A stretch of DNA of 64,000 nucleotides from a virus, in the IMG/VR virus record IMGVR_UViG_3300047301_000191. One strand, written 5' to 3'. Under the pieces are notes generated by a model. It was not told the origin of the DNA. It saw only the letters and a list, made by a program, of their open reading frames with translations, and did no database searches. The translations under genes were made by a program, and so were the position numbers. Below, piece by piece: positions 9,524 to 64,000 of this stretch. Numbering within the stretch: the first letter of the stretch is position 1; each line of letters opens with the position of its first letter.

Positions 9524-9898
9524 ATGAATCTGCAAACATGGGAAGAAGTCCAGAGATTGACTTCAGAGTATGGTCCACCAAGATTCGTTTCAAAAAAATA
9601 CGTTAGGTTCCAAACGGGCGAGAGATACGCAGAGATCAGATTTTTCGATCATGGTGTGATTGGAAACATAATGCTCGGCTACATTAAATCCAATGGCAAA
9701 GAAATAACTCATTGTGATAGTGGTCCATCATTTACGGAGTTCTATCCAGATGGTGCGCTTTACTGCCGCCATTATCATCACAATGGTTTGACGCATCGCA
9801 CTGATGGACCAGCGATTGAGAAGTTTGAAAAAAATGGACATTGTCGCTATAAGGCGTATTACATAGATGGCGTCGAGAAGTCAGTCACCCGAGACTAA
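9524..9898 (+). CDS. MORN-variant repeat protein (family member 1)
   Basis: N-term MNLQTWEEVQRLTSEYGPP; repeats HRTDGPAIEKFEKNG...YKAYYIDG. Confidence 0.7.
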   Translation: MNLQTWEEVQRLTSEYGPPRFVSKKYVRFQTGERYAEIRFFDHGVIGNIMLGYIKSNGKEITHCDSGPSFTEFYPDGALYCRHYHHNGLTHRTDGPAIEKFEKNGHCRYKAYYIDGVEKSVTRD

Positions 9899-9910
9899 AG
9901 AAAGAAGATT

Positions 9911-10249
9911 ATGAACCGACTAGGACGATTGCCCCATTTCATTGAAATGGAGTCTGCCATCTTTGTTAAACCAAAAGCCTGCATGGAGTTGGGCCGTCTA
10001 GAGATTTCCTACAAAGTCCTACCCGGTGCAGCAGAAATGCTAAATACAATTGGAGCAGACACGCTGAGTTTGATCGGGACAACTCAGCGATACATGCGCA
10101 TCCTAAATCTAGAAGCGTACGATCAATTCAATTGCCAGGAGCACGACGATGATAGACTCGTTGTCGATCTTGCTGTAACGGCTTCCCATTTGCAAACCCA
10201 AAAAGACAAGATCAACGAAGAGCTTGCCAAAAAGAAAAAGAAAATCTAA
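9911..10249 (+). CDS. Hypothetical protein
   Basis: ORF, + strand. Confidence 0.45.
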   Translation: MNRLGRLPHFIEMESAIFVKPKACMELGRLEISYKVLPGAAEMLNTIGADTLSLIGTTQRYMRILNLEAYDQFNCQEHDDDRLVVDLAVTASHLQTQKDKINEELAKKKKKI

Positions 10250-10258
10250 GGAGCAAAT

Positions 10259-10975
10259 ATGACTAGCCAACTTGACGCAGCCCTCGATGCTGCTGGCACT
10301 GCCGCCGACTATAGTGCTCGGGCAACTTTCATGAGAGGTTATGAGGCAGGACAAGCCAGCGTGCCCTCCAGTGCAAAGAAAGCCCAGGCACAGATTGACT
10401 CCCTCACTGCAGAACTTGATGCAGCGAAAGCTGAGGCAATTGCTCAGAAAAAGTATATTCAGGATGCCCAAGAACTCGTCATCTACAATACAAATACAAT
10501 GAATGCTGCCGAAGCGAAACGTGATACTGCGGAAAAAATGGTAGCTGAAATGAAAGAAGCTATGATGCTTGTCGTCGGATTTCTTGAGCACCGGAAAGAT
10601 TCTTCGGCGCCAGCTATTCGCGCGGCAATCGACACAGCCAGTCCAATTGCTGATCGATGGCGTCCGGCCAGTGATTTTGATGATCTTAGCAATGCTAGAG
10701 ATGCTTGCAATGATCAGCTGAATGTCGCACTTGATGAACGCGATGACGCAGAGGCCCGTGCCAAAAAGCACATGCTGGAGCGTGATATGAATGTCACGGC
10801 GAGTGTAAAAGCTGAAGCAGAACGTGACACAGCTATTGCCCGCGCTGAGAGTGCGATGATCATTTTGCGCGAGTTGGTAGATGGGGCAAAAGGATTGAAT
10901 GATTTAGGGCTGGAGATGTACGACATCAGGCCCCTCATCGAACGCGCACGAGACATCGCCAAAGGCGACTCATGA
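10259..10975 (+). CDS. Coiled-coil protein (Ala/Glu/Asp-rich)
   Basis: 238-aa ORF; GGAGCAAAT RBS. Confidence 0.5.
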   Translation: MTSQLDAALDAAGTAADYSARATFMRGYEAGQASVPSSAKKAQAQIDSLTAELDAAKAEAIAQKKYIQDAQELVIYNTNTMNAAEAKRDTAEKMVAEMKEAMMLVVGFLEHRKDSSAPAIRAAIDTASPIADRWRPASDFDDLSNARDACNDQLNVALDERDDAEARAKKHMLERDMNVTASVKAEAERDTAIARAESAMIILRELVDGAKGLNDLGLEMYDIRPLIERARDIAKGDS

Positions 10976-11199
10976 ACGTAGCCTTGTATTGGCACTGTCT
11001 TCAGTGTGGCGACCACGAGCCCATCAAGCTAACAGGAGACATAGAAGAATATGGGATAGGTGATAGAGAGAAGTGTATCACATGCGGAGATGGAATAGCT
11101 CATGTGGTAACGCTCGACATTGCCGCAAGATATGAGCAAGGGCGAGCGTTAGGTATGAGTATTGTTGATGCCTGGGATTGGGCCCATGAAATTAAATGA
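10972..11199 (+). CDS. Zn-ribbon protein (CxxC...CxxC)
   Basis: HCLQCGDHE...CITCGDG motifs; ATGA overlap with the upstream stop. Confidence 0.5.
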   Translation: MNVALYWHCLQCGDHEPIKLTGDIEEYGIGDREKCITCGDGIAHVVTLDIAARYEQGRALGMSIVDAWDWAHEIK

Positions 11200-11647
11200 G
11201 TGGGAGGTAATGCAGACAGATATTCTGTTGTATGGCAAACCCGAAAACAGCGAAGGTATTTTTACATACGATACCTCTTCTGTCTTAGGGCCGGGCTCAA
11301 AAATGGAGATGCAGTTCTTCAAAAGCACTGGCACAATTAATTACCGCGAATACCGAAAAGATAGAAAGCAACATCGAATCGATGGACCATCCAGAGAATT
11401 CTTCTATTCGTGTGGAGCGAAAGAATTCGAATCGTGGTTTTTAAATGGGATAAAACATCGTGATGATGGTCCAGCAACGCGATCTTTCTATGAGAGCGGA
11501 AAGATTGAAAAAGAATTGTACATTGTCAATGGGAAGCTTCATCGCATTGGTGGCCCGGCCGATCTAACGTTTTCGGAATCTGGAAGAATAATATACAGTG
11601 AATACTGGTTTGAGGGAACATTTTACCCAAAGAGAGAAAAGAAATGA
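11186..11647 (+). CDS. MORN-variant repeat protein (family member 2)
   Basis: Internal ATG gives MKLNEWEV N-term; repeats HRIDGPSREF, HRDDGPATRSFYESG, HRIGGPADLTFSESG. Confidence 0.65.
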   Translation: MKLNEWEVMQTDILLYGKPENSEGIFTYDTSSVLGPGSKMEMQFFKSTGTINYREYRKDRKQHRIDGPSREFFYSCGAKEFESWFLNGIKHRDDGPATRSFYESGKIEKELYIVNGKLHRIGGPADLTFSESGRIIYSEYWFEGTFYPKREKK

Positions 11648-12069
11648 AATCAAACCGTTGGTGGATTCGCGGCTGCTCCTTGCGTGTGCTTAAACGATAT
11701 TTGCCAAAGAGTAAGTTTAGGCTCTCATATGCCGACATGAAGACCTCCTCGCTTGTTTTTTGGGATGGTTGCGCCTTTCGCATTTCTGATTGGGAGGACA
11801 TGCTCAATGAAGTGCGCGCGCTAAAACCAGGAGATCGAATCTTTAATCCCTATCGTAAGACATGGCAAACAATTACCGAGATTAAATTTGTATGGGATAC
11901 TGGTTCGCATCCGGCTTCTCGCAAAAAGCTTTCCCGCATTTTTGATTTGGTTAGTCGCTACCAATATATTGGTGGCTTCATCATTTGTGACGACACCCAT
12001 GCCTGTATCTACGATACGCCATCAGACATGGCGTACAGATACTCAGACTATCACCAGCCCATTCGCTAA
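11644..12069 (+). CDS. Hypothetical protein
   Basis: ORF, ATGA overlap. Confidence 0.4.
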   Translation: MKSNRWWIRGCSLRVLKRYLPKSKFRLSYADMKTSSLVFWDGCAFRISDWEDMLNEVRALKPGDRIFNPYRKTWQTITEIKFVWDTGSHPASRKKLSRIFDLVSRYQYIGGFIICDDTHACIYDTPSDMAYRYSDYHQPIR

Positions 12070-12079
12070 AGGAAAACAA

Positions 12080-13240
12080 ATGCGAAAACTTGCTTCAATC
12101 CAAAAGATCGTCAACATCTTCCCCATTCCAAATGCAGACCTGCTTGTTCTTGCGCAGGTAAACGATTGGCTTTCTATTGTGAAGAAGGGTGAGTTCCAGG
12201 TTGGCGAGCTTGTCGTCTACTGCGAAATTGATTCCGTTCTTCCAGAAATCCCTGCGTTTGAATTCATGAGGCAGCGAGATTATCGAGTCAATACAATTAA
12301 GCTGCGCGGCACACTGAGCCAAGGCCTCATTGTCGGTACATCGGTTCTGCCCGAAGGTACCGCGATTATTGAAGACTTTGATGTCAGCAGTATTCTTGGA
12401 GTCGTTAAGCCTATCCCTGGAAAGTCTCGCAAAGGAACACGGCAGCCTAATCGTCAAGGTCGACGGAGCAACTTCCCAAACTTCATTAAGAAAACTGACG
12501 AGACTCGTATTCAGTCCAAGTCATCTGTGCTTGATGAGCTGGAAGGTGTAGAGGTTTATGCTGCCGTCAAAATGGATGGTCAGTCATTGACGTTCGCAAA
12601 CTACGCAGCAAAAGAAGAAGATAATCCGTTTATTGTTTGCTCGCGCAACTTCAAGAAGGACCGAACGATTATCGTCAAGAGCCGAGACGAAAATGTTCCT
12701 GACCGGGAAGAGATCGACACTCATTGGCAAATCGCAGACCGACTAAAGATCTTTGAAAATCTTCCGTATGGTTTTGCAATGCAGGGAGAGTACCTTTCCG
12801 ACAAAATTCAAGGCAATCACCTAGGTGTAAAAGAGCCGGAATGGCACTGTTTTCAAGTGTTTGATATTGTGAGTCAAAAGTATCTGGACTACGCGAACTT
12901 CGTTCAGTTTTGTTTGACGATGAATATCAAGACAGTTCCAATTGAAAGAGTTTGGAAATTCTGTAAGCAAGAGTTCATAGATCTTCACGCAAAAACCTAT
13001 CCTGACTCCCTTTGTCAATCTGCAGTTGGCGGTCTGTTGCAGTTTGCAAGAGGCCGGTACAGCTCAGGCTTTCCGCGAGAAGGTCTAGTGATTCGCCCAA
13101 CTACAGAGCAATATAGCGAGTCTCTTAAAGGAAGGGCTTCATTCAAAGTCATTAATAATGACTTTCTACTGAAAGTAAAAGGCAAAGAAGATATTTATGA
13201 CGAGGATGGAGACGACGAACAGACTATAACTTCTGATTGA
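12080..13240 (+). CDS. ATP-dependent RNA ligase-family nucleotidyltransferase (KxDG motif I; Rnl2/DraRnl-like with N-terminal OB-like domain)
   Basis: ATG after AAAGGAAAA RBS; motif I AVKMDGQSL; ligase-like downstream motifs. Confidence 0.6.
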   Translation: MRKLASIQKIVNIFPIPNADLLVLAQVNDWLSIVKKGEFQVGELVVYCEIDSVLPEIPAFEFMRQRDYRVNTIKLRGTLSQGLIVGTSVLPEGTAIIEDFDVSSILGVVKPIPGKSRKGTRQPNRQGRRSNFPNFIKKTDETRIQSKSSVLDELEGVEVYAAVKMDGQSLTFANYAAKEEDNPFIVCSRNFKKDRTIIVKSRDENVPDREEIDTHWQIADRLKIFENLPYGFAMQGEYLSDKIQGNHLGVKEPEWHCFQVFDIVSQKYLDYANFVQFCLTMNIKTVPIERVWKFCKQEFIDLHAKTYPDSLCQSAVGGLLQFARGRYSSGFPREGLVIRPTTEQYSESLKGRASFKVINNDFLLKVKGKEDIYDEDGDDEQTITSD

Positions 13241-14151: not shown

Positions 14152-14544
14152 ATGAAGCTTGACGTATGGGAGCAGGTACGAGATCTTACCATCCAGTTTG
14201 GCAAGCCTGCATTTGTCTCCAATGTAATTCATTTTGTCAATTCTGATGAGGCTAGCGCAAGTATTTTTCTTCACGGCAATGGAAGCGTTTGGGTAATTCA
14301 ATACACGAAAGGCAGCCATCCTTTCCAGTTCCATCGTAAAGATGCTCCTGCCGTCATAGAGTACTACGAGGATGGCCAGATAGCTGGAGAGTTTTGGCAC
14401 ATAAATAATCGACGTCATCGAGCAGATGGCCCTGCTGCCATATACTTTAACAAAGACGGCAGCATATCGTACAAAGAATACTGGATTGACGGAAAAAGAA
14501 AAGGAGACTCAAATGATCAAAGATCACCTCATTGTAATGGCTAA
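14152..14544 (+). CDS. MORN-variant repeat protein (family member 3)
   Basis: N-term MKLDVWEQVRDLTIQFGKP; repeats HRKDAPAVIEYYEDG, HRADGPAAIYFNKDG. Confidence 0.7.
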   Translation: MKLDVWEQVRDLTIQFGKPAFVSNVIHFVNSDEASASIFLHGNGSVWVIQYTKGSHPFQFHRKDAPAVIEYYEDGQIAGEFWHINNRRHRADGPAAIYFNKDGSISYKEYWIDGKRKGDSNDQRSPHCNG

Positions 14545-14707
14545 GGCAATCGACATCTGTATCTTTGTTCCTCAGAGACTGATGAATCGCAAAGAAGTTT
14601 CCCCTGGAAAAATATCGATGTATTTCTTCTCGGATGTGCTTCACTACTTGTTGGCATGGCCTTGTCTTCATTCGGCGATACACTTGGCGCGCAGGCAACC
14701 GGACTAG
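14513..14707 (+). CDS. Small membrane protein (possibly the 5' part of a frameshifted gene)
   Basis: ATG after AAAGGAGA RBS; hydrophobic C-term; overlaps the next ORF in another frame. Confidence 0.3.
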   Translation: MIKDHLIVMAKAIDICIFVPQRLMNRKEVSPGKISMYFFSDVLHYLLAWPCLHSAIHLARRQPD

Positions 14708-14859
14708 CACTTTTGGTCTTTGGTGGCTGGTCTGCCATGCAACCATTGTTCGTCGTTGGTTGGAGTATTTTGGTTTGGATGTTTGGAGATCATGTAGACA
14801 ATCTGCGTTGCTGGTATCTTGAAGAGCTGGCATCACTCAAGGATGCTCGAAAGAACTAA
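14656..14859 (+). CDS. Small membrane protein (possibly the 3' part of a frameshifted gene)
   Basis: TM-like GAQATGLALLVFGGWSAMQPLFVVGWSILVWMF. Confidence 0.3.
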   Translation: MALSSFGDTLGAQATGLALLVFGGWSAMQPLFVVGWSILVWMFGDHVDNLRCWYLEELASLKDARKN

Positions 14860-14877
14860 ATAGAAAGTAGAGGTTGT

Positions 14878-16128
14878 ATGCGTAAGATCATTTCTTTTGC
14901 TATCTTCACTTCACAATATCTTTTGGGATGCGATCCTGTCGAGCCCCTGATTCCAGGGCAGCACTGCGGAGAAGTCTGCGCAATAGATGCGGAAGGTGAG
15001 ATTGCAATTGGCAATCTTGCGTTTAACTATACGTGCAATGTCGGGCAAGTCAACTGTGAAGTTGTGGATGAAGAAATGATTGTTACCTGCAAAGGCAGCA
15101 TTCCTTTTTCAGAAGAAATTTGCGATACAGATAATGTTGACGAAGACTGCAATGAAGAAAACAATGACATTGAGTATACCAGTTTTGATTATCGAAACAC
15201 ATGCGAGGGGGTAGGCGAGTGCGCTTATCAAAAACAAATCTGCTCCGCTGATGGAGACTTTATCTGTATTCCAACTTCTGTGTTTTTTGGGGCAGAGGTC
15301 TGCGACGAAGAGTTCAGAGATGAAGATTGTGACGGGCTTGTCAATGAACAAGATCCAGATCTTCAACGTGGGGAATTTAGCTATAGCGGTCCACCAAGCA
15401 CGGCAAACGTTGGAGTTTGCCGTGCAGGGGTAACTAGATGCCAAAGAGGCTCTACTCAATTTTTTGGAGAAGTTCTTCCTTCAGAAGAAATTTGTGGGAA
15501 CGGCCTTGATGACGATTGTGATGGGCTCACCGATGAAGATGAGCAAGATACGGAGCCAGACTCTTTTCTATTGAGCATCGATGTATCAGGTTCAATGGAA
15601 ACGTATATTCAAGAAGTAGCCATTGCCCTTTGCGAATGGTCAGACAATCCAGAATTTGCAAACTCACTCTTTGCTATTCAGGCAGTTGGCACATTCACAT
15701 TCGAAGAACCATACGTGGGAATTGTTACTCCTTTTGTAAGTGCGGCAGACGCCTGCATAGCTCTAGCAGACTATGTTGACTCAGACAATCTTAGTGGCGG
15801 ATTTGAGTTTGTTCCTCTCGCCATCAGAGCTAACAATGACCAAGAAACAGATGTTTATATTCCTTGGCCGAGAGAGTCTGAGCGCAAAGTGATTTTCTTT
15901 TCTGATGAGCCACCGCAGAGTATGACTGGCACGATTGAAGAAGACATTCAACTTACGGTCGAAGATTGCGCAGTCAACAACTATCAGGTAAGTGGCTTCG
16001 TCCTATATGACTTTAGTATGTGGGCGAATATGACCGACCCATGCGGTGGCTGGCTAGAGAGCTTGACTCCTAATGCAAATAGTTTGCGAGAGGCTCTTGA
16101 TCGTAGATTTACTTCTACTTGCCATTAG
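14878..16128 (+). CDS. Cys-rich lipoprotein: repeated C..G.D[DE]DC[DN] metal-binding-like motifs plus a von Willebrand A domain
   Basis: Signal peptide + lipobox LLGCD; repeats EICDTDNVDEDCNEEN, EVCDEEFRDEDCDG, EICGNGLDDDCDGLTDEDE; MIDAS motif DVSGSM. Confidence 0.7.
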   Translation: MRKIISFAIFTSQYLLGCDPVEPLIPGQHCGEVCAIDAEGEIAIGNLAFNYTCNVGQVNCEVVDEEMIVTCKGSIPFSEEICDTDNVDEDCNEENNDIEYTSFDYRNTCEGVGECAYQKQICSADGDFICIPTSVFFGAEVCDEEFRDEDCDGLVNEQDPDLQRGEFSYSGPPSTANVGVCRAGVTRCQRGSTQFFGEVLPSEEICGNGLDDDCDGLTDEDEQDTEPDSFLLSIDVSGSMETYIQEVAIALCEWSDNPEFANSLFAIQAVGTFTFEEPYVGIVTPFVSAADACIALADYVDSDNLSGGFEFVPLAIRANNDQETDVYIPWPRESERKVIFFSDEPPQSMTGTIEEDIQLTVEDCAVNNYQVSGFVLYDFSMWANMTDPCGGWLESLTPNANSLREALDRRFTSTCH

Positions 16129-16172
16129 AGCTTGCAGTCTCGGCACACACCTTTGGATAGACAGGCGAAGAC

Positions 16173-16466
16173 ATGAATCTAGAAGGATTTGAAGTAATAG
16201 AACACGCAGCAAAGAAGAGCGCTATATCACAGAGCAAGCGAGATTCTTATTGGAATGGCGCACAGGCATCTTTGGATGGCTTCACAGTAAAAACATATCA
16301 GACAGATAAATCTGTAGAAATAAGGATTGACTTCCTATCCCTTCACTCAAGGATAGAGCCTTTTATTGGTGCAATCCTCCTTCCAGCGTGCTACTTCTAT
16401 GCCGCTGGAGAAGAACATTTTGGATGTCAAAAACTAAGATGTCTTTGGAGAGATTCGGCAAATTGA
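16173..16466 (+). CDS. Hypothetical protein (N-term MNLEGFEVIE)
   Basis: ORF, + strand. Confidence 0.4.
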   Translation: MNLEGFEVIEHAAKKSAISQSKRDSYWNGAQASLDGFTVKTYQTDKSVEIRIDFLSLHSRIEPFIGAILLPACYFYAAGEEHFGCQKLRCLWRDSAN

Positions 16467-16630
16467 ACAGACAAGGCCAACGACAATAAGATAGCACACT
16501 TCATCAAAGTCATTGATGCGTATGTCTCTTATTCTCAAGGTCTATGCTGTTGCCAAACCTGCAGAAAAACAAATATCGACACGCTTATGCGTAATCACCA
16601 AGAAGAACTAAAATCAAACAAAGGAAAGCA

Positions 16631-16885
16631 ATGAGTAGCTTTGACAAAGAAACGCTCAAAAGAACTGGCGATTGGATTGAGAAGAATTACGACCCAGATA
16701 AGGAGTTGTTTTCGTATCGCATCCTTGGATTGCTCGCAGAGCAAGAGAAGTCTGTCGCCCCGGCACAAGCGGTACGAGCCTTCTTCCAAAGCATTGCAAA
16801 TATGATGGTTCCTACCATTGTGCTATCTTATTGTCGTTGGCCTATTAGGCGTGTTCATCAACTTAGTGCGCACAGAACACTATAA
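16631..16885 (+). CDS. Hypothetical protein
   Basis: ORF with AAAGGAAAG RBS; overlaps the next ORF in another frame. Confidence 0.35.
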   Translation: MSSFDKETLKRTGDWIEKNYDPDKELFSYRILGLLAEQEKSVAPAQAVRAFFQSIANMMVPTIVLSYCRWPIRRVHQLSAHRTL

Positions 16886-17129
16886 AGAAAATGCAATGGC
16901 GGAGGCAAAAATCGCAATAGACGCCTCAGTCCTTGATTTTAGAAACAAGGCAAACATCAGAATTGCAGCACTTGAAGCTGAAATGCAAACGAAGAAGCAA
17001 GAGCATAGCCAGTGTGAAGTAAATCTTCGAGAAGCAGAGTCTGCTCACAATAAAAAGATTGAAGCAGCACGACTCGTAATTGCAGAAACTGCAGCAATCT
17101 GTCGCCCGGCAAATCCAGCGATCCCTTAA
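16818..17129 (+). CDS. Hypothetical protein with N-terminal TM helix and coiled coil
   Basis: YLIVVGLLGVFINLV helix; possible frameshift partner of 16631..16885. Confidence 0.35.
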   Translation: MCYLIVVGLLGVFINLVRTEHYKENAMAEAKIAIDASVLDFRNKANIRIAALEAEMQTKKQEHSQCEVNLREAESAHNKKIEAARLVIAETAAICRPANPAIP

Positions 17130-17175
17130 GTATAATATAAAAGCAGAAGTCGAATGTCAACAAACCCAACCAAGG

Positions 17176-19440
17176 ATGGTAAGCGTGAAGTGTTTTAGTT
17201 TGTTTCTCCCTATTGTTTTTCTTTTTGCTGGATTTTCCCAAGCCAGCGAAGGCCATGATCGACGACATCGAGTCGATATCTGTCATAACAACCATGAGAT
17301 TAGGGTTGATGAGCACTCCGTCAAGGCTCATATGGCGCATGAAGATTGTCTTGGAGAATGCCCATGCGAAGCCCCAGAGCCAGAGTGCGAATGCGATGCA
17401 GATTGCACCGACAATCTTTTCTGCAGTGGTGATGATTTTTGCCGAGATGGAGTCTGTCATACTTTGCCACGAGAATGTCGCCCCACTGAAGTGTGTGATG
17501 AAGACAGGGATGCCTGTGTGGCTGTTCCGGAATGCAGTGAAGATTGCGATTGCGACAATGGTCTAGCTTGTGATGGTGCCGAATTTTGTGTTGGGGGCGT
17601 ATGCCTTGAAGGACAAAGCCCATGCCAAGATCAGCAAGTTTGCGATATTGAACATGATTTGTGCGTACCACCACCAGAATGCCTTGTCGACGAAGACTGC
17701 TCAGATAACATTTTCTGCAATGGTTACGAGCAATGTGTTGATGGAAGCTGTGCGGTAACTTTCCTTCCTTGTCTTGAAACCGAAGTGTGCTCAGAGGAGT
17801 TTGTTTATTGCACGCCTGTTTCTGGTGAAGGCGAGGGTGAGTCCAGTGAAGGAGAAGGGGAACCACCATGCCCTTCAGAGGGCGAGGGCGAAGTAGATCC
17901 CGCAGAGGGAGAAGGGGAAGGGGAGTCAAGCGAAGGCGAGGGCGAAGGTGAACCTTCCGAGGGCGAAGGCGAGCCAGAGCAACAAGAAAAATTGTTTATC
18001 TCTGGTAGCAGCGCATTCACTTGCCAGTCTTCTGATGGCACATCCTTTGCTATGTTCGCAATGCTCACTCCGTTTGCGAGTCTTTTTTCACGACGAAAGA
18101 AGGCAATTGCCAGCGCGGCTGTGATTGCAATGATTGCGATGGCGAACCCTGTCAAGGCAGAAGGACTTAACCGATCAGTTGGCGCAATCATCGAACATGA
18201 CACCGCCAATGTTCAATCTCCACTTCTGCTTGATGCTGGTACTATTCTGGTGGGCGGAAGTCTCGATTACTCTCATCAGCCTGTGGTTTTCCGCAATGAA
18301 GCTTTTGAAAATAAAATCACGGCAGTCGAACACCAGGGCACCGCTCGCCTTAACCTTGCATTTGGATTGACCGACAATCTTCAAATTGAAGGAAGTGTCC
18401 CGGCGTCATTGACTGTGGGAAAGGGTTTGGATCTAACAGGTCGTCCATCTGTTGGCATGGCTGACTCTTTGCTGGGGGCTCGACTGTCTCTGCTAGAAAA
18501 AGGTCAGCCACTGCAGGTTGCAATGTCTTTTCAGCTTGGTGTGCCGACGTCTTTTGCTTCATCTAATGGCCAACCAATCCTTGGAGAATCATTTTTAACT
18601 GGTCGCCCAGCCCTACTGGTTTCAGTTGGTGACGATATTGTTCGTGCGACTGGAAATGTAGGCTATACTTTTCGCAAAGAGAAATCGGTTGCTGATCTTA
18701 CTATTGGTGATGAGTTTGATGTGGGTGGAGCACTGAGTGTTCAATTAGTTCCAAAGGCTCTCTGGGTGACTGCTGATATTGCCAGCACTCTCAGCAGTCC
18801 ATCAATTCGTTCAAGCCGAATGATGTTTCCAACAGAAGCTAGTGTTGGCCTCCGTGGTGTATCTGGTCCACTGTTCGCGTCGGCGTCTGTTGGAACGGGA
18901 TTGGTTGCAGACGTAGGTACTCCTGATGTTCGAGCTACGCTAGCGGCAGGAATTACTTTTGATTTTGTTGAGCGACAAGTTCCTGCGAGCCATTGTCCTC
19001 CTGTAGTGGAACCAGCCGAACCAACTATTGCAAAGCCAACCGACAAGCCTGCCTTGGACTTAGTTGAAATCACTGATGATCGAATTGTCATTCTAAAGCC
19101 AGTGTTTTTCTATTACGATTCTTCCCGCATTCGCCCTGAAAGTATTGCGGTGCTAATGCAAGTTGCGGAAGCCATGGATCAACACCAGGAAATTCTAAGC
19201 CTTTCTGTTGAAGGTCATACAAGCTCTGAAGGGACAAGCCTATACAATCTTGACCTAAGTCAGCGTCGTGCAGCAGAAGTAAAGAGTTTTCTGGAGGCGT
19301 ATGGAATCAGTCCTTATCGTCTTCGCTCAATGGGATTTGGCGAGGTAGTGCCAATCGCTTCGAATGAAACGCAAGCAGGCCGCGAATCAAATCGTCGTGT
19401 AGAGTTTGTGATTCTAGAACGCAAGTTATTAAAGCAATAA
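17176..19440 (+). CDS. OmpA-family outer-membrane protein with N-terminal Cys-rich repeat domain and Gly-Glu low-complexity linker
   Basis: Signal peptide MVSVKCFSLFLPIVFLFAGFSQA; repeats of the C..G.C....C type; C-terminal OmpA/MotB domain (NLDLSQRRAAEVKSFL...GRESNRRVEFVILE). Confidence 0.7.
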   Translation: MVSVKCFSLFLPIVFLFAGFSQASEGHDRRHRVDICHNNHEIRVDEHSVKAHMAHEDCLGECPCEAPEPECECDADCTDNLFCSGDDFCRDGVCHTLPRECRPTEVCDEDRDACVAVPECSEDCDCDNGLACDGAEFCVGGVCLEGQSPCQDQQVCDIEHDLCVPPPECLVDEDCSDNIFCNGYEQCVDGSCAVTFLPCLETEVCSEEFVYCTPVSGEGEGESSEGEGEPPCPSEGEGEVDPAEGEGEGESSEGEGEGEPSEGEGEPEQQEKLFISGSSAFTCQSSDGTSFAMFAMLTPFASLFSRRKKAIASAAVIAMIAMANPVKAEGLNRSVGAIIEHDTANVQSPLLLDAGTILVGGSLDYSHQPVVFRNEAFENKITAVEHQGTARLNLAFGLTDNLQIEGSVPASLTVGKGLDLTGRPSVGMADSLLGARLSLLEKGQPLQVAMSFQLGVPTSFASSNGQPILGESFLTGRPALLVSVGDDIVRATGNVGYTFRKEKSVADLTIGDEFDVGGALSVQLVPKALWVTADIASTLSSPSIRSSRMMFPTEASVGLRGVSGPLFASASVGTGLVADVGTPDVRATLAAGITFDFVERQVPASHCPPVVEPAEPTIAKPTDKPALDLVEITDDRIVILKPVFFYYDSSRIRPESIAVLMQVAEAMDQHQEILSLSVEGHTSSEGTSLYNLDLSQRRAAEVKSFLEAYGISPYRLRSMGFGEVVPIASNETQAGRESNRRVEFVILERKLLKQ
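17824..17985 (+). repeat. In-frame low-complexity Gly-Glu repeat (GEGEGESSEGEGEP...)
   Basis: Reiterated ggcgagggcgaa units inside the OmpA-domain gene. Confidence 0.7.
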
Positions 19441-19442
19441 CA

Positions 19443-19475
19443 AGACAGGCCTTCAATGAGGGCCTGTCTTCATTT
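19443..19475 (+). terminator. Rho-independent terminator (agacaggcc-loop-ggcctgtct)
   Basis: 9-bp perfect stem 3 nt after stop 19440, followed by TCATTT. Confidence 0.5.
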
Positions 19476-19483
19476 AAGGCAAA

Positions 19484-19840: not shown

Positions 19841-19867
19841 ACTATAACAACCTAAGGGGATTCATAA

Positions 19868-20320: not shown

Positions 20321-20442
20321 AGGGAATACCATGTCTAGCCCTATCTCTAATCCCGCTTTGGTGACTTCGCGTTACCGGCGGTGGGTTCTACCTAGCTGAC
20401 CGCATCGCTAGGAAGAACTGCAATCATTATCAGCATCAGGTA

Positions 20443-53792: not shown

Positions 53793-54170
53793 ATGAATCT
53801 GAATCAATGGGAAGTGATCGCTGAATTAGCTGAACAATACTCTTCCCCTAAGATTACTCATGGATCCTTCGTCTTTCTTAAAGAAGAAAAATCAGCGATT
53901 GTCTGTTTTTATGAGTGTGGTCAAATCAAATCTTGTACCTACTCCAACAGAGTAGGTTATCATCGCCCCCATCAGGAAGGCCCTGCAAATCAGATTTTCT
54001 ATAGGGATGGAAATATCAGCTGCACCCAGTACTTCTTAGATGGACTACTTTATCGGCCACCTCATTTGGGGCCTGCCTATAAGAGTCTATATCAGGATGG
54101 ACGAGTTTTGCTCGCAGAGTACTGGCAGTATGGGAAGAAGTTCGCGCCTCTACAATCGGCGCCACTCTAA
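53793..54170 (+). CDS. MORN-variant repeat protein
   Basis: N-term MNLNQWEVIAELAEQYSSP; repeats YHRPHQEGPANQIFYRDG, YRPPHLGPAYKSLYQDG. Confidence 0.7.
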   Translation: MNLNQWEVIAELAEQYSSPKITHGSFVFLKEEKSAIVCFYECGQIKSCTYSNRVGYHRPHQEGPANQIFYRDGNISCTQYFLDGLLYRPPHLGPAYKSLYQDGRVLLAEYWQYGKKFAPLQSAPL

Positions 54171-54183
54171 GTGGGGGGTGACT

Positions 54184-54594
54184 GTGAATATCGATAGTTG
54201 GCAAAAGATACGAGAGCTTACTGAAAAGTACGGACCTCCCAAAAGTGACGGGCGAAAGGGAAACGGATTAACATTCGAGAAATCAAACACTAGCGTTTGG
54301 GTGGGCCTTCGTCCATCTGGTTCGATTTCATATATCGAGTACAGTGAATCAAGTAGCGAACACTCTATTTTAATGCTTTCCAGACCACATCTAGATGGAC
54401 CTGCTGTAGAATCATTCCATGACAATGGCAAAGTCCATTGCAGATACCATTACAAAAGTTCGTTGCTGCACAGGCCTACTGATCTAGGACCAGCCTACGT
54501 AAACTACGGTTATGATGGGGCGCTCATGGGATGTTCATACTATCATATGGGAATTTCGCAGCAAAAAGTGGATGCAATTAGCCTAAGGAGTTGA
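54184..54594 (+). CDS. MORN-variant repeat protein
   Basis: GTG start; N-term VNIDSWQKIRELTEKYGPP; repeats SRPHLDGPAVESFHDNG, HRPTDLGPAYVNYGYDG. Confidence 0.65.
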   Translation: MNIDSWQKIRELTEKYGPPKSDGRKGNGLTFEKSNTSVWVGLRPSGSISYIEYSESSSEHSILMLSRPHLDGPAVESFHDNGKVHCRYHYKSSLLHRPTDLGPAYVNYGYDGALMGCSYYHMGISQQKVDAISLRS

Positions 54595-55715: not shown

Positions 55716-56462
55716 ATGAGACAAATAGTACTTACTGATCTCCATGGCTGCTACGATGAAATGCGCCGCCTGCTGGATCAAATCAAATTCGACAGCACCG
55801 ATACGATTATTGGTGCGTCTGACGCCGTAGACAAAGGCCCTCATTCTGCTGAAGTTGTGCGTTTTCTTGCGGATCTAGGTTGCCAAGTCAGGCAAGTCCG
55901 AGGCAATCATGAGATGAAGTTCTTGCGCTTTGTAAAGGCTTATCGAAAAGATTCGTCTAAAGCTATGGAGCGCCGTGGCTCTCGCGACATGGAGCGCACA
56001 ATGAATGGACTCAGGGAATCTGATCTTGAATGGCTTGCGAGTGGAGCGACGTGGGCGGATGTCAAGGGACACAACGCAATCGTAGTTCATGCTGGTATTG
56101 AGCCCGCCATGAAGCGACTGCCGGAACAATTTCCTGAAGACAAAAAGAAGCTCGAATCTTGCTCGGCGCTGTGGTACACTCGTTTCGTCAAGAACGGGCG
56201 GATGGTCAAGCTTGGTGAAGAAGACCCAGAATGTCAATTCTGGGCGGATGTTTATGACGGCAGGTACGGCACCGTCTACTATGGTCACCAGCCATTTATG
56301 CAGGCTGACCCTCGCATCTCAGAGCACGCCGTAGGGCTCGATCTTGGTGGAGTTATGGGTGGGCAACTTGCTGCCGCTATCTTCTACGAAGACAGGGTTG
56401 AGTTTGATAAAGTGGCTTGTCAAGAATATGTTTCGCCAAAAGCCGCGTATGGTGACGAATGA
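55716..56462 (+). CDS. Calcineurin-like metallophosphoesterase (PPP-family phosphatase, lambda-PPase/ApaH-like)
   Basis: Motifs TDLHGC (GDxHG), SDAVDKGP (GDxxDRG), RGNHE (GNHE). Confidence 0.8.
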   Translation: MRQIVLTDLHGCYDEMRRLLDQIKFDSTDTIIGASDAVDKGPHSAEVVRFLADLGCQVRQVRGNHEMKFLRFVKAYRKDSSKAMERRGSRDMERTMNGLRESDLEWLASGATWADVKGHNAIVVHAGIEPAMKRLPEQFPEDKKKLESCSALWYTRFVKNGRMVKLGEEDPECQFWADVYDGRYGTVYYGHQPFMQADPRISEHAVGLDLGGVMGGQLAAAIFYEDRVEFDKVACQEYVSPKAAYGDE

Positions 56463-56851
56463 ACTTGGATGCGACCGCAAGAATCCTGTCAACAGGCCTT
56501 TGGGTTAAGTCAAAAGAAAAGCCACCAAGCCCAGTGTCACAGTGGTGGGATGATATTGCTGAGCGTCGATACCGGCTAAATATCGTGAATTTCCAAACAG
56601 TTTACATTGTCTCTGTGTCGGATATGAGGGCTGAAGATTTTTGGCGGGGCGAAGGCAGACTGTTTTACGTCGCATTTGATAATGAAGCCCAGAGTGCCGA
56701 GGATGCTCTATTTGTAAACCTAAAGGAGGATGCTCTACTTGTAAACCTAAAGAGTTCCTTCGATGAAGCCACTGTTCTAGCCGCCTACAATCGTTTCATT
56801 CCCAGTGACTTGCGTGAATACGCACCATTTTGTGACAAGAGGAAAGTATGA
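56459..56851 (+). CDS. Hypothetical protein containing a 27-nt tandem duplication
   Basis: ATGA overlap on both sides (operon with phosphoesterase and Thg1-like gene). Confidence 0.45.
   Translation: MNLDATARILSTGLWVKSKEKPPSPVSQWWDDIAERRYRLNIVNFQTVYIVSVSDMRAEDFWRGEGRLFYVAFDNEAQSAEDALFVNLKEDALLVNLKSSFDEATVLAAYNRFIPSDLREYAPFCDKRKV
56699..56752 (+). repeat. 27-bp direct tandem duplication (gaggatgctctaYttgtaaacctaaag x2), in-frame (EDALFVNLK EDALLVNLK)
   Basis: Two adjacent copies differing at one position. Confidence 0.8.
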
Positions 56852-57708
56852 CGACAACCACCACAGAAGCAACTGCGCGCCTGCCTTCTCTTGAAGAACA
56901 ATTCCAAGAATTGGAGCGACTTGAAGACCAGCGCATTCCGTCCTCTCAAGGTTTCATCACCAGGCTTGATGGTCGAGGTTTCTCAAAGCTAACGCAGAAA
57001 CTTGATAAGCCATTCGATTCCGACTTCAATCGAGCAATGAGGGCTGCGGCAGTATCTTTGTTTGTAGACTTTAACCCGCTGCTCATCCACACAGGCAGTG
57101 ACGAAATTTCTGCATACTTTCCTGCTCAAAAAGGAGAAACAGGGGAACACCCATTTAATGGAAGGATTCAAAAGATTCTTTCGGTTGTAGCTGGCGTCGT
57201 TTCCACTGCCTTTAATCAAGTCACATCGAGCCAAGAGTTTAAGGCAAAGCTGACTGATCGTGCAGTATTTGATGCACGAATCGTAAAGGTTACTCCCGAG
57301 TTGGCTGCTGCGTATTTTGTTTGGCGAGAGCAAAACACAAAGAGAAATTCTGTTCAAATGGCTTGTCGCACCGTTATGTCGCACAAGGCAATGAATGGGC
57401 TGAATCAAACGCAGCAGTTTCTTGCGCTTCAAGAATACGGCATTGATTGGAACAATTATGACCGCATGAATAAGCGCGGAATCTTGCTACAAAAGCAATC
57501 CAATCAGCTTCGGCTCACAGCACAAGATATCTCACAATTGCCCGAGAGGCATGATCTGCGCGTGGCGGCAAGTTCATCAGAGGGTGGCGACGTTGTCATT
57601 GTTCGCAACGAAGTTGTGGAGCTTGACTTGCCCCCATTGGCTTCAGTTGCAAATCTGTATGAATGCCTTTTTGAGAAGGCAATCCCGGAGCTAAAAGATG
57701 ACAAATGA
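56848..57708 (+). CDS. Thg1-like protein (tRNA-His guanylyltransferase family, 3'-5' nucleotide-addition/tRNA 5'-end repair enzyme)
   Basis: FITRLDGRGFSKLT, TGSDEISAYFP, FNGRIQKILSVVAGVVSTAFN, VFDARIV, YFVWREQNTKRNSVQMACRTV, EYGIDWNNYDRMNKRGILL align with conserved Thg1 blocks. Confidence 0.8.
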   Translation: MTTTTTEATARLPSLEEQFQELERLEDQRIPSSQGFITRLDGRGFSKLTQKLDKPFDSDFNRAMRAAAVSLFVDFNPLLIHTGSDEISAYFPAQKGETGEHPFNGRIQKILSVVAGVVSTAFNQVTSSQEFKAKLTDRAVFDARIVKVTPELAAAYFVWREQNTKRNSVQMACRTVMSHKAMNGLNQTQQFLALQEYGIDWNNYDRMNKRGILLQKQSNQLRLTAQDISQLPERHDLRVAASSSEGGDVVIVRNEVVELDLPPLASVANLYECLFEKAIPELKDDK

Positions 57709-58792: not shown

Positions 58793-59209
58793 TTGGAATT
58801 AGATATATTTACGGAAGTTATTCTTTCGCTAAACGATCCTCGCGAAATCAGCCGCGAGCAATTCTGGAGCGTTCGTCGTCAAGAATTCGATGGAGATCTT
58901 CGCATGTTACTTGGTGAACCAGACTGCACCGTGAAGTACTTAACGGTGGACAATTTGATTACAGGACAAAAAGAAGATATCGCAATCGCACATGAGGGAA
59001 ATAACGGGGACTGCCTTTACTGGCAACAAAATCAAATCTATAGGTCGGCCGAAAGAGTGCCGGTAACTTACTTCAAGGCTTCTGGTGTCCGTTATGGGCG
59101 GCTAATGCTTGGCGGATTCAGGAATGAAAAAGCACTCTCTGTAGAAAGCCCTGGTATATTTTCCGAATACATCGCGCAGAAATACATTAGGATCAGCCGT
59201 GAAACTTGA
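58793..59209 (+). CDS. Tandem paralog family E, member 2
   Basis: TTG start; N-term MELDIFTEVILSLNDPREIS; YWQQNQIYR; GIFSEYI. Confidence 0.5.
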   Translation: MELDIFTEVILSLNDPREISREQFWSVRRQEFDGDLRMLLGEPDCTVKYLTVDNLITGQKEDIAIAHEGNNGDCLYWQQNQIYRSAERVPVTYFKASGVRYGRLMLGGFRNEKALSVESPGIFSEYIAQKYIRISRET

Positions 59210-59663
59210 TTTTATGAGCGAGTTGCTCGCAGCAATAAACGATCCTATTATCGTCGGAGAAGAGGATTTTCATCGAGACTCTCCTGCCTGTATGTATTTT
59301 CACACAAGTTACTACGACGCGGTCGATTATCGCTGTCCAATCACATACTACTCTGTATGGAATGCCTTTAAGTCCTGCAGAGAGATTTGCGCACAAGCCA
59401 TTGAGATGTCGTCGAGGGTTACAGCCATGTCGAGAACTGTGTCGGGGAAAGAAACCACGTTTTATTGGCAGAACGAAAAGATATACTATAACTTCATAAT
59501 AGACGAATTTTGCATCAGCTGTGATTCTCATGATTTTGGCAACGAGCCGAAATTCTTTAATCCGCGAGACACAAATGACACTAAGTATGAACTTACAAAA
59601 GATCAAGCGGGAATCTTTTCAGAAAACTTCTATCTGAAACACTTTTTAATCTTAAGCAATTAG
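59199..59663 (+). CDS. Tandem paralog family E, member 3
   Basis: GTG start; N-term VKLDFMSELLAAINDPIIV; YWQNEKIYY; GIFSENF. Confidence 0.45.
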   Translation: MKLDFMSELLAAINDPIIVGEEDFHRDSPACMYFHTSYYDAVDYRCPITYYSVWNAFKSCREICAQAIEMSSRVTAMSRTVSGKETTFYWQNEKIYYNFIIDEFCISCDSHDFGNEPKFFNPRDTNDTKYELTKDQAGIFSENFYLKHFLILSN

Positions 59664-59753: not shown

Positions 59754-60122
59754 ATGAGTTTCGATATTCCGACTGCATATTCAGAAATGCCGCCAGCGCC
59801 GCAGAGTATGGCTTCCGCCCACAGAAGGCCGAGGACATCGCGTAAATCATCCAATTATCTTAGGACCTTGATTGGGCCACCACATGGATGGAAGCCTCAG
59901 ACCTACTACATAGGTGACTGCTCAGTTGGAGTAGGAAATCCCACATGGCGGTGCATTGTTTTTTCTGGCTTCCTTAATGGACCGAACGGCGATCCTGGAG
60001 GTTACTCTTGCATCTGGAGTGCGACTGGAGATCAAATGCCAATAGACGAATCCTATTATCTTGCTATTGTCATGGAGATTGGCAACATCAACGGCCCTCC
60101 TCAACTCCCAGAGCAACCATGA
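59754..60122 (+). CDS. Hypothetical Gly/Pro-rich protein
   Basis: ORF downstream of motif copy 10. Confidence 0.45.
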   Translation: MSFDIPTAYSEMPPAPQSMASAHRRPRTSRKSSNYLRTLIGPPHGWKPQTYYIGDCSVGVGNPTWRCIVFSGFLNGPNGDPGGYSCIWSATGDQMPIDESYYLAIVMEIGNINGPPQLPEQP

Positions 60123-60448
60123 ATCTAAAACAATGGGAAGAAATCAGCAAGCATCTCGAAGAGTACAGCGAGCTATCTGTTGTTGGTGACCATCGTGACT
60201 GCTTTTCGCTTTGTACTCCAACCAATCCCAAACACAGAGTTTTTCTTTCGTTTTTCAGCAATGGGCAGGTGCATTCACGTCGCTACATGGATGGCCTTGT
60301 AACCCATCGCCCTATCTCCGAAGGGCCTGCTTTTGAAAGCTTTGGCATGGACGGCAGTATTTTTACCCGCGCCTTTTGCGTAAATGGTCACTATGTGGCG
60401 ACAGATAAAAATTATCCTAAATCATACAGTCGGAAGGATGACAAATGA
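60119..60448 (+). CDS. MORN-variant repeat protein
   Basis: ATGA overlap; N-term MNLKQWEEISKHLEEYSEL; repeat HRPISEGPAFESFGMDG. Confidence 0.6.
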   Translation: MNLKQWEEISKHLEEYSELSVVGDHRDCFSLCTPTNPKHRVFLSFFSNGQVHSRRYMDGLVTHRPISEGPAFESFGMDGSIFTRAFCVNGHYVATDKNYPKSYSRKDDK

Positions 60449-62455: not shown

Positions 62456-63625
62456 ATGGCACAATCGTATAACCTACGATCCCTGACCGTAGAAGAGATT
62501 GTTGAGCTGACCGACACAGAGCCAATGATTTCGTATTTTTTGCATCTCTCCCACATCCATGAAGATGACGAGATGAAGTTTGCCGCAGGCGTGTATGTAA
62601 AGGCGGGGCAGCCCCACCTACTGATGAACCCAACCATGATGAACACCTTTTCTGTACGAGAAAAGATTGGTGTTATTGTGCACGAGTTTATGCACGCGAT
62701 GTTGGCTCACTGCACGACACGCACGACCAATGAAGAGAATCGGCGTAAGACTGAGAACATCGCGAAAGACATGGCGATCAATCAGCTTATCGTTGACCCG
62801 CGCTATGGGAACTGGGATTTGCCAAACGGTTGCGTTTCGCATACCGATCCTCGTTTCAACTATCCAGCGGGACTCTCGGCGGAAGAGTATTACGCCAAGA
62901 TTAAGGAGGAGCATTCCGAAGACGACATCAGCAAGAACTTCGGTGACCTTGGTTTTGACGACCACTCGAACTGGAGTGAGGATGACGACATGGCTGGTAC
63001 GCAGGTAATCAAGCAAATGGCCCGGCGCTATTTGACTGGTACCAACGCCCAGCGTGGTCGCACTCTTGCTGCTGGTACACTGGCGAACTCAATGATTGAA
63101 GAAATTCTCAGCGTGGAGAATAACGACATTGATTGGCGAGCCAAGACCCGTCAGTGGCTTTGTCGTGTAGCCGATCCCAAGGCTAAGTTTACTTGGAAGC
63201 GAATGAGCAAGCGCTATGGGGCTCCATTCCAAGGCACGAAGATGAAGACCAAGAATAAGGTCTGTGCGATTGTCGATACATCTGGCTCCATGAGTCAGTC
63301 ATTCTTGGCTCACATCGGTGGCCAGTTGAACCAGATGTCTCGCATCATGCAGGTTGATGTTGTGTTCGTAGACGCTGAAGTGCATGGAGCGATTAAGAAG
63401 TTTCGTCCATCCGCTCAGCTAGCATTCCCAGGGCGTGGCGGCACCGACATGCAGCCAGGTTTTGACTATGCGATGGAAGAAGGATATCGTGGAGTTATTT
63501 GCTTTACGGACGGCGGCCTCTGGCGCCAACCAGAATGCAATCTCAAGACGCTTTGGGTAGTAATGAACAACCGTGGCTTTACTTCGCCTATTGGCGAGGT
63601 GGTTCACGTTGATTGGCGGGAGTGA
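62456..63625 (+). CDS. VWA-domain protein with N-terminal HExxH putative metallopeptidase domain (DUF2201-like MoxR partner)
   Basis: VIVHEFMHAMLAH zinc-binding motif; C-terminal MIDAS motif VDTSGSM; directly follows the MoxR ATPase with a conserved leader. Confidence 0.75.
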   Translation: MAQSYNLRSLTVEEIVELTDTEPMISYFLHLSHIHEDDEMKFAAGVYVKAGQPHLLMNPTMMNTFSVREKIGVIVHEFMHAMLAHCTTRTTNEENRRKTENIAKDMAINQLIVDPRYGNWDLPNGCVSHTDPRFNYPAGLSAEEYYAKIKEEHSEDDISKNFGDLGFDDHSNWSEDDDMAGTQVIKQMARRYLTGTNAQRGRTLAAGTLANSMIEEILSVENNDIDWRAKTRQWLCRVADPKAKFTWKRMSKRYGAPFQGTKMKTKNKVCAIVDTSGSMSQSFLAHIGGQLNQMSRIMQVDVVFVDAEVHGAIKKFRPSAQLAFPGRGGTDMQPGFDYAMEEGYRGVICFTDGGLWRQPECNLKTLWVVMNNRGFTSPIGEVVHVDWRE

Positions 63626-63627
63626 AT

Positions 63628-63855
63628 ATGACGTTATTTGGAATTATTCGAGAGATGCTTGCTCGTGGCGAACTTGGTACGGTACGTACCTTTCATCCTC
63701 AAATGGGAGAAGGAGAACGGCTGACCTATCTGGGTGAGCCGGTTACGATTCTGACGGGCACGCATCAGGCGGCTGGTGTTGTGTTTCGTGACCCACATGA
63801 TGTGATGCTCACCGCGTCAGGTCAGTTGATTACGGCTGCCTACTCGGTAGCTTGA
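63628..63855 (+). CDS. Hypothetical small protein, third gene of the MoxR-VWA unit
   Basis: ATG 3 nt after the VWA stop; strong terminator follows. Confidence 0.4.
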   Translation: MTLFGIIREMLARGELGTVRTFHPQMGEGERLTYLGEPVTILTGTHQAAGVVFRDPHDVMLTASGQLITAAYSVA

Positions 63856-63860
63856 ATGAA

Positions 63861-63898
63861 GGGGCCTGTGTCCGTAGGGATACAGGCCCCTTCTTTTT
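63861..63898 (+). terminator. Rho-independent terminator (ggggcctgt-N12-acaggcccc + TTCTTTTT)
   Basis: 9-bp GC stem and T-run 6 nt after stop 63855. Confidence 0.7.
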
Positions 63899-63910
63899 AA
63901 TGGAGGACTT

Positions 63911-64000
63911 ATGAATCTTCAGCACTGGGAGTATCTACGTTCAGGCCGGTACACTTGGCAAGAAACGCACGAGATGTGGGTCTCTAGGCTTGATGGACTT
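63911..64000 (+). CDS. MORN-family N-terminal domain protein, 3'-truncated by the window edge
   Basis: GGAGG RBS then MNLQHWEYLRSGRYTWQETHEMW. Confidence 0.45.
   Translation, partial: MNLQHWEYLRSGRYTWQETHEMWVSRLDGL

Follow-up and report, generated by a model that had tools for sequence, protein, structure and literature searches.

A 64,000-nucleotide stretch of viral DNA (IMG/VR record IMGVR_UViG_3300047301_000191; we call this whole stretch the window) contains 14 full-length copies of a small repeat-protein gene, all on the + strand. This family is real, well delimited and lineage-restricted, and it is a helix-capped, long-period variant of a known repeat class, the MORN_2/YwqK repeats. 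We propose that the copies are most likely a repertoire of protein binders (inhibitors or adaptors) for different partners, and that one copy targets a kinase of the RNA-repair type. We hold this functional reading only tentatively, with a probability of roughly 0.45. An earlier note on this DNA had listed the same 14 starts, and all of them are present. Each member was scored by a hidden Markov model (HMM) built from the other 13, with the expectation value (E) computed for a database sized to all open reading frames (ORFs) of the window, and the values ranged from 1.3e-29 to 1.3e-6. The members, with sizes in amino acids (aa), repeat units and leave-one-out E values, are:

9524-9898, + strand: 124 aa, 2 units (the first degenerate); E = 1.3e-29
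11186-11647, + strand: 153 aa, 3 units at 28-aa spacing (anchors at residues 63, 91 and 119); E = 8.9e-29
14152-14544, + strand: 130 aa, 2 units; E = 2.7e-28
23233-24027, + strand: kinase-fused member, 264 aa, with an N-module at residues 1-~101 and 1 unit (HRPIEEGRA); E = 4.5e-14
24354-24674, + strand: 106 aa, GTG start, 1 unit; E = 1.5e-10
24688-25026, + strand: the most divergent member, 112 aa, GTG start, 1 unit (SRDPAMGPA); E = 1.3e-6
25080-25496, + strand: 138 aa, 2 units; E = 3.3e-25; best direct MORN_2 score in the window
28606-28992, + strand: 128 aa, 2 units; E = 1.1e-22
28989-29372, + strand: 127 aa, 2 units; E = 2.6e-28
32353-32760, + strand: 135 aa, 2 units; E = 2.2e-19
34582-34923, + strand: 113 aa, 1 unit; E = 2.9e-17
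53793-54170, + strand: 125 aa, 2 units at 30-aa spacing; E = 5.2e-28
54184-54594, + strand: 136 aa, GTG start, 2 units; E = 2.8e-29; the member modelled with AlphaFold
60119-60448, + strand: 109 aa, 1 unit; E = 8.4e-18

The standalone full members are 106-153 aa long and the fusion protein has 264 aa. When all proteins were compared with each other as single sequences (phmmer), 13 of the 14 members fell, together with a short relative at 31151, into the largest paralog cluster of the window. The family makes up 14-15 of about 130 genes (~11%), close to the share of roughly 10% that had been claimed. An alignment of the 14 members bears out the N-terminal consensus MxLxxWExIxxLxxxYGxP, and over the whole length the consensus is MxLxxWExIxxLxxxYGxP...HRxxGPAxxxFxxxGxxxxxxYxxxGxxHRPxxxGPAxxxFxxxGxxxxxEYxxxG. 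We counted 24 units in total, at 1-3 per protein as the earlier note had it, but the period of about 23 aa that it gave needs correction, as the HR..GPA anchors are actually 28-30 aa apart.

Pairwise identity among the paralogs is at most 35%, and tandem neighbours are not consistently each other's closest relatives (the only reciprocal best matches are 53793 and 54184), so the duplications are old. Ratios of nonsynonymous to synonymous substitution (dN/dS) among the paralogs are not meaningful at this level of identity. The start of 28989 overlaps the stop of 28606 (ATGA). The GTG starts of 24354 and 24688 are backed by their orthologs in a sister genome, P0006 (MLLVEYEEI) and P0008 (MQLYIWEHL). 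For the member at 54184, a public gene call (P0001, 165 aa; 54040-54594 of the window) begins 29 codons upstream, and the family alignment indicates that the GTG at 54184 is probably the true start.

Other ORFs lie at the edge of the family:

31151-31348, + strand: member with the N-terminal domain only, 65 aa, without an HR..GPA unit; the motif aligns from the GTG at 31163
63911-64000, + strand: start of a gene of a short-period subfamily, cut by the end of the window; the full gene (103 aa) is on contig L001
37863-38237, + strand: possible decayed relative (weak evidence), 124 aa; it carries the N-terminal motif and, close to its C-terminus, one HRISGPA unit

Three ORFs had been put forward as partial members, and only 31151 stands as one (family HMM E = 4e-4; hhalign probability 88.5% across 49 columns). 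The ORF at 31323-31592 has no HMM match and its 3' end overlaps tRNA-Ala (31583-31656), and we do not consider it a member. The gene at 63911 is not a fragment: on L001, a near-identical overlapping contig (9 mismatches in 6,705 bases), it is complete (6616-6927) and has a MNLQHWEYL start and two units of 23-aa period (HxxDxPA/HRxxGPA). Because it scores only E = 0.4 against the family profile, we assign it to a related but distinct subfamily. It is followed on L001 by a 100-aa paralog (6935-7237) and then by a 141-aa gene (7234) that starts with MKVNEWEEI. The ORF at 37863 reaches E = 0.22 with the family HMM, and hhalign aligns its HRISGPA unit at a probability of 23%.

There is strong, if indirect, evidence that the repeats belong to the MORN_2/YwqK class, as a variant with a long period (28-30 aa). 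The resemblance that the earlier note saw does not hold up in a direct search of Pfam: the best score with MORN_2 (PF07661) is 18.4 bits (for 25080), as compared to a gathering cut-off of 29.6 bits. The direct matches have E of 0.002-0.3 (the other listed members score 11.8-14.0 bits at E of 0.06-0.32), and for 8 of the 14 members no match is listed up to E = 1. The canonical MORN model (PF02493) is not listed up to E = 1 for any member, although the filters of HMMER drop most matches above ~0.1. The members miss the MORN_2 cut-off because 1-3 units in a short protein cannot build up the score. The class assignment comes instead from relatives. A profile built from the window's proteins only, when compared to 1.84 billion cluster representatives, matched 11,175 proteins at E ≤ 1e-3 (197 of them at E ≤ 1e-30), nearly all via the repeat part (profile positions ~50-121) and often in 4-19 stretches. 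These relatives are long arrays of HRxDGPAxIxYxxNGxxxxExYYxNGxx with a modal spacing of 28 aa (in 160 related proteins). Half of the 50 closest relatives (25) match MORN_2 at E ≤ 1e-4, with a best E of 8.8e-19. The link is transitive: the window profile matches P0015 at E = 4e-62, and P0015 scores 62.2 bits with MORN_2. P0024 (31.6 bits), P0036 (30.6 bits) and P0140 (30.5 bits) are also above the MORN_2 cut-off, and P0140 is a member from outside the window that has the same N-terminal motif. Pfam catches the 28-30 aa variant only where many units sum. A sequence profile search of PDB gave only chance matches to TyrRS (E ~0.3).

The second half of the N-terminal "domain" (xxxIxFxxNGxIxxIxY) weakly matches the repeat units, and we take it to be a degenerate hairpin. 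The part that is specific to the family is the helix, MxLxxWExIxxLxxxYGxP. This helix-capped family has no model in Pfam, PHROG or NCBIfam and no characterised member.

The predicted structure agrees with the repeat class. AlphaFold2, given a 14-sequence alignment, modelled the 54184 member with a predicted local distance difference test score (pLDDT) of 92.5 and a predicted template modelling score (pTM) of 0.85. In the model, residues 3-16 form a helix and nine strands come after it; the pLDDT is 93-97 for residues 1-20, which include the helix. Its strands form the extended antiparallel sheet of beta-hairpins expected for MORN_2. When we compared the model to predicted structures of viral proteins with Foldseek, there were 40 matches at E ≤ 1e-3. 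Those with a name are nearly all annotated as "MORN repeat protein" or "YwqK family antitoxin" and come from giant viruses; two matches are from uncultured tailed phages. The members are hydrophilic, with a grand average of hydropathy (GRAVY) of -0.34 to -0.85, and have no hydrophobic segments. Their isoelectric points (pI) range from 5.1 to 9.8 and their net charges from -7 to +6. We considered whether they could be DNA mimics, but this range of pI, with no strong acidity, rules that out.

Across the 24 units, only a few positions are well conserved: the R of HR, G-P-A, F/Y at +6, G at +10, an aromatic residue at +17, and G at +21. The positions G0, P1, A2, F6, G10, Y17 and G21 have entropies of 0.24-1.9 bits (most are under 1.6), while nearly all other positions from G-P-A onwards have ~2.5-3.7 bits. 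Such a pattern is that of a scaffold which stays fixed while its surface changes. Orthologs in the sister genome show something similar at the level of whole proteins. In two of three pairs, the N-terminal helix and the last repeat are almost unchanged, but the sequence just behind the helix has diverged strongly. This is clearest in 32353 and P0004 (62% identical overall), where the strongly diverged stretch spans residues 15-85 and is flanked by conserved residues 1-14 and 86-135; the third pair, 24688 and P0008, is conserved throughout. Recombination or localised fast evolution could account for this mosaic divergence. The description of the family as diversifying adaptors is plausible in light of the fixed framework and the variable positions around it; this pattern is what we see directly, and an adaptor role with diverse targets would be a reading of it.

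Outside the window the family is rare. A word-indexed search of 5.8 billion proteins had just 11 matches. Five of these (P0001-P0003, P0005 and P0007) are identical to, or contain, a window protein; P0004, P0006 and P0008 are the orthologs in the sister genome; and P0009-P0011 are generic short-repeat proteins. The sister genome is syntenic, and this includes the kinase fusion (P0161, 91% identity). It also has an extra gene, with a NADAR domain, after the 28606/28989 pair. Among 50,697 phage records, we found no match to the region 17080-27887 (megablast) or to a member protein (tblastn), so the window is far from any cultured phage. A generic protein with 28-aa repeats matched only Celeribacter phage P12053L in these records.

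Relatives of the family do occur on L003 (12.8 kb), a distinct contig that resembles a huge phage and has genes for an RNA ligase, a TilS-like protein and a release factor. L003 has five members (E of 8e-17 to 7e-45) that start with MxLxEWExL and have units of the SRDPxEGPA type. Two of them are in tandem, and the one at 7298 overlaps the stop of the RNA ligase (6267-7301). With the fusion protein as the query, we found no related locus in viral contigs and one relative in metagenomes, L006, that has the kinase only. L006 is an unrelated, phage-like metagenome contig. On its - strand (14249-17616) there is a tandem array of at least 8 small proteins made of 23-aa HREDGPA repeats, which share the N-terminus MKNGCIE and the C-terminal tail YWKELYKLGKISQEELVLELL. 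A homolog of the 23233 kinase domain that stands alone (49% identity) lies ~7 kb from the array. Given the members on L003 and the array on L006, expansions of small HR..GPA-repeat proteins are recurrent in uncultured phages, with caps that differ by lineage.

The kinase fusion at 23233-24027 is as the earlier note described it. Residues 105-236 match AAA_33 (52.0 bits versus a cut-off of 27; E = 1.2e-13), the Walker A motif is GVPGSGKS, and the N-module is recognised by the profile of the other members. The best PHROG matches are phrog_2071 (E = 1e-24) and phrog_505, "polynucleotide kinase" (E = 1.7e-13). Among the homologs listed, those of the kinase region are mostly ~145-205 aa (a few are up to 424 aa), and only P0161 covers the whole fusion. 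Their source names include "predicted kinase", "NEDD4-binding protein 2", "Kti12" and "2',3'-cyclic-nucleotide 3'-phosphodiesterase". These names fit a polynucleotide-kinase-like enzyme that gained the N-module in this lineage only. Since the kinase mostly stands alone in other homologs, the fusion suggests that the scaffold can act as a targeting domain. We also tried to type the kinase domain against PDB sequences, but the only matches were P-loop matches to Vps4.

We therefore have a fixed framework with free positions around it, and hence no fewer than 14 forms of the same scaffold that differ in their surfaces. In the mechanism that we propose, each member would be a small, soluble, single-domain protein: a twisted antiparallel beta-sheet of a single layer, capped by an N-terminal amphipathic helix (residues 3-16). 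The sheet would be made of the degenerate hairpin region and 1-3 hairpins of the MORN_2/YwqK type, of 28-30 aa each. The turn and core residues (R, G-P-A, F/Y, G, Y/F/W and G) would be the fixed framework, and the other strand and loop positions would be free to change. Each copy could then bind a different partner in the infected cell stoichiometrically and either inhibit or recruit it. Bacterial YwqK-type antitoxins neutralise toxins, and eukaryotic MORN domains hold their partners, by binding of this kind. In the kinase-fused copy, the scaffold would be a targeting domain, probably within the surrounding set of tRNA and RNA-repair genes. A role in host takeover or against host defences would fit such a set of binders. 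The ywqJ-ywqK genes have been listed as a putative polymorphic toxin-antitoxin pair (PMC8321402), and it is known that immunity genes can occur together in multi-gene "polyimmunity" loci (PMC3482391).

Several observations weigh against this proposal. Among the neighbours that were scanned, we recognised no toxin or defence gene beside any member. The paralogs are old, and nothing indicates that copies are still being added quickly. Relaxed constraint, as opposed to selection for new specificities, could also produce the high variability. For the structure, we have a model predicted from an alignment of 14 sequences. As for annotation, no window member reaches the MORN_2 cut-off directly, and PHROG has no significant match for the family part of any window member. 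NCBIfam (E ≤ 1), which includes antitoxin models, has nothing relevant for 6 standalone members or for P0140, P0076 and P0012, and gives only kinase-type matches for the fusion protein. Also, the phage nature of the window is inferred from its gene content, and no phage structural gene is present among the window proteins that were scanned.

The gene content resembles an accessory region of a huge phage, and nearly all of the genes are on the + strand. The genes that bear on the function of the family, or that characterise the region, are:

5519-5594: tRNA-Gly
6759-6842: tRNA-Thr
31583-31656: tRNA-Ala
11888-13240: RNA ligase, just downstream of the member at 11186
21247-22398: RNA ligase
35856-36893: RNA ligase fused to an HNH nuclease domain
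38258-39472: RlaP nucleotidyltransferase
55716-56462: NinI-like phosphoesterase
56848-57708: Thg1-like tRNA-His guanylyltransferase
25497-27887: ClpA-like double-AAA unfoldase, 796 aa
17080: OmpA-domain protein
32769-33233: YqeY
61258 and 62456: MoxR/VWA pair

One of the three RNA ligases is Rnl1-like, and the window as a whole is a dense tRNA and RNA-repair toolkit. The ClpA-like protein reaches at best ~50% identity, to ClpA of the proteobacterial type in two phage records; its identity to the ClpA of PA5oct-like jumbo phages is 42%. A gene on the - strand (41173-42117, 314 aa) has a match to REase_MTES_1575 that is below threshold (31.3 bits versus a cut-off of 38.2; E = 2e-7). Most neighbours of the members are unknown small proteins, and we found no toxin domain in the part of them that was scanned.

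The N-terminal motif extends beyond the family. We looked for the pattern M-x-[LIVM]-x-x-[WFY]-[EQDKGAS]-x-[ILVMF] at start codons with 50 or more codons behind them, and there are 30 matches on the + strand of the window and one on the - strand. Half of the + strand matches (15) belong to the family (the 14 members and 31151, from the GTG at 31163). The frequency of the pattern inside window proteins (0.0023) predicts 0.2-0.7 starts (P ≤ 3e-14 for at least 14). The other starts, and some near-variants, are:

16173, 19484, 19868, 20852, 37863, 39463 and 40404, + strand: non-family motif starts, at the first or best-placed gene start
43505, 43863, 44213, 44589, 47882, 55352, 57891 and possibly 63622, + strand: non-family motif starts, likewise at the first or best-placed gene start
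29620 (MKLETWDL), 29953 (MTLDEWNV), 30644 (MYLEDWSI), 58295 (MQLDSFTEI), 58793 and 59199, + strand: near-variants of the motif

At least 14 genes with the motif have unrelated downstream sequence, and these include three other groups of small paralogs. Beyond the window, the three genes on L001 (6616, 6935 and 7234) also open with it, and on L003 only the five family members have it. We reject conservation of the 5' ends as DNA: the codons vary at synonymous sites and no upstream sequence is common to these genes, which places the conservation of the motif at the protein level. An iterative HMM search that began with the N-terminal domain recruited no extra ORFs with the motif (15 matches through four rounds). 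In hhalign, these ORFs align over the first 10-19 residues only (probability 0.6-25%), and because the alignment is confined to those residues, we do not count them as members.

One of the other groups is made up of four tandem paralogs (43505-43873, 43863-44216, 44213-44587 and 44589-44933) of 114-124 aa, which start with MxLxDYxFxxPFxxRY and end with WP(F/H). Only residues 1-17 of this group align with the MORN-like family. AlphaFold predicts a short N-terminal helix and then a beta meander (pLDDT 76.6), and in this model the similarity of the start to that of the MORN-like family is suggestive. All-versus-all phmmer gave two more groups, 29620-29940/29953-30309/30353-30613 and 58295-58741/58793-59209 (with possibly 59199-59663), and several of their proteins carry variants of the motif.

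The motif may be all that is left of a shared ancestor, or it may be a functional N-terminal element. As a functional element, M-x-L-x-x-(W/F/Y)-E-x-(I/L) would be a genome-wide address or docking signal that sends varied small effectors to one destination or partner, which may be the capsid (for co-injection), the phage's ClpA or some other hub, with the MORN-like proteins as the largest class of cargo. We think that this is unlikely. Within the family at least, the helix packs with high confidence in the model, which argues against a detachable tag.

A more specific form of this idea is that the proteins are packaged in the virion and ejected with the DNA, with the N-terminal peptide as a capsid-targeting signal. 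The internal proteins of T4 are a precedent: they are a diverse anti-restriction set that shares only a capsid-targeting sequence (PMC3012670), and here too a motif that is conserved in protein and not in DNA is common to the family and to at least 14 unrelated genes. We strongly doubt that the family works in this way, as its helix is integral to the modelled domain instead of forming a tag that could be removed, no (L/I)xE cleavage motif of the T4 type is in register, and there are no structural genes nearby. Another destination, the membrane, was the original idea for MORN repeats, and the earlier note had listed membrane or phospholipid binding as a candidate role. It is the weakest of the options, and we consider it extremely improbable. 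Its sole support is the historical name of the repeat class, together with an OmpA-domain protein and a lipoprotein-like gene in the window. The members are hydrophilic, with no consistent basic patch or charge, and MORN repeats have been redefined as protein-protein interaction modules, with TbMORN1 binding neither membranes nor vesicles (PMC7725318).

Gene neighbourhoods point to two more alternatives. The members might be accessory factors for RNA repair that bind tRNA, rRNA or the phage's own repair enzymes (the ligases, the kinase, the Thg1-like protein and RlaP) and organise the repair of RNA damage inflicted by the host, with the kinase fusion as a covalent version of this arrangement. 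This would explain why one member is fused to a polynucleotide-kinase-like AAA_33 domain, why members adjoin RNA ligases in two lineages (11186 lies upstream of 11888, and L003 has the overlap described above), and why the window is so rich in tRNA and RNA-repair genes. But with 14 members over 50 kb, some adjacency to RNA genes is expected by chance, and most members are beside unrelated unknown genes. The members also have no nucleic-acid-binding motifs, and with this range of pI they are not consistently basic, so we view a role in RNA repair as rather unlikely. Alternatively, the members could be adaptors, regulators or substrates of the ClpA-like unfoldase that deliver different proteins to it. 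Three of them (24354, 24688 and 25080) are directly upstream of its gene, in the position of clpS in bacteria; 25080 ends at 25496 and the unfoldase gene begins at 25497. The sister genome keeps the order of kinase fusion, 90-aa gene, 107-aa member, 113-aa member and long ORF (the long ORF at the clpA position has 500 aa, is cut by the end of the contig, and has no Pfam match on record), and no ClpS was recognised among the scanned window proteins. This argument is from gene proximity only. Eleven members are elsewhere in the window, those on L003 are not beside a Clp gene, the fold is unrelated to ClpS, and there is no ClpP among the scanned proteins, and a role with ClpA is quite unlikely in our judgement.

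We compared the family, which we prefer to see as a set of binders, to the closest known systems. It shares with MORN_2/YwqK proteins the framework of beta-hairpin repeats (G...aromatic..(N/D)G...aromatic..G), the matches of its relatives to MORN_2, and a predicted fold that matches viral proteins annotated as YwqK or MORN. The proteins are small and soluble and have no catalytic motif, which is consistent with action as a binder or as an antitoxin. They differ from MORN_2 in their period of 28-30 aa and their HR(P)xxGPA turn (the Pfam model has 22 positions), and the capping helix with its motif is specific to the window's family. Unlike YwqK antitoxins, they have no NCBIfam match, and we saw no toxin gene beside them among the neighbours that were scanned. 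Eukaryotic MORN repeat proteins (MORN1-4, junctophilin and the N-domain of SET7/9) are also among the closest known systems. The best structural matches are to the MORN expansions of giant viruses (Orpheovirus, Pithovirus, Hokovirus and Hyperionvirus; E = 1e-5 for Hokovirus), and at least 9 paralogs from Orpheovirus are in the top 50 Foldseek matches. As in the window, one virus has many copies of a small MORN-type protein. However, the giant viruses have eukaryotic hosts and not bacterial ones, their proteins lack the shared N-terminal domain, and the identity is just 8-21%. The internal proteins of T4 are an analogy for the motif only: in both cases many otherwise different small proteins have only a short N-terminal peptide in common, and the T4 proteins act against host defence (PMC3012670), but the sequence and register of the motif differ, and the helix in the window's family is predicted to be part of a folded domain.

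About 1 gene in 9 over 64 kb is a version of a single compact scaffold. Huge phages have hundreds of small genes of unknown function, and the family is a tractable entry point to them, as it offers 14 natural forms of a single fold that probably all differ in their partners, with one form already joined to an enzyme. Because the profile matches 11,175 representatives and Pfam covers them only in part, a dedicated model of the 28-30 aa HR..GPA repeat would annotate many proteins. If the N-terminal motif is functional, phages would have a new way of addressing proteins. And if the partners are host defence or toxin proteins, then the family would be the phage counterpart of bacterial immunity-gene arrays and a source of natural inhibitors.

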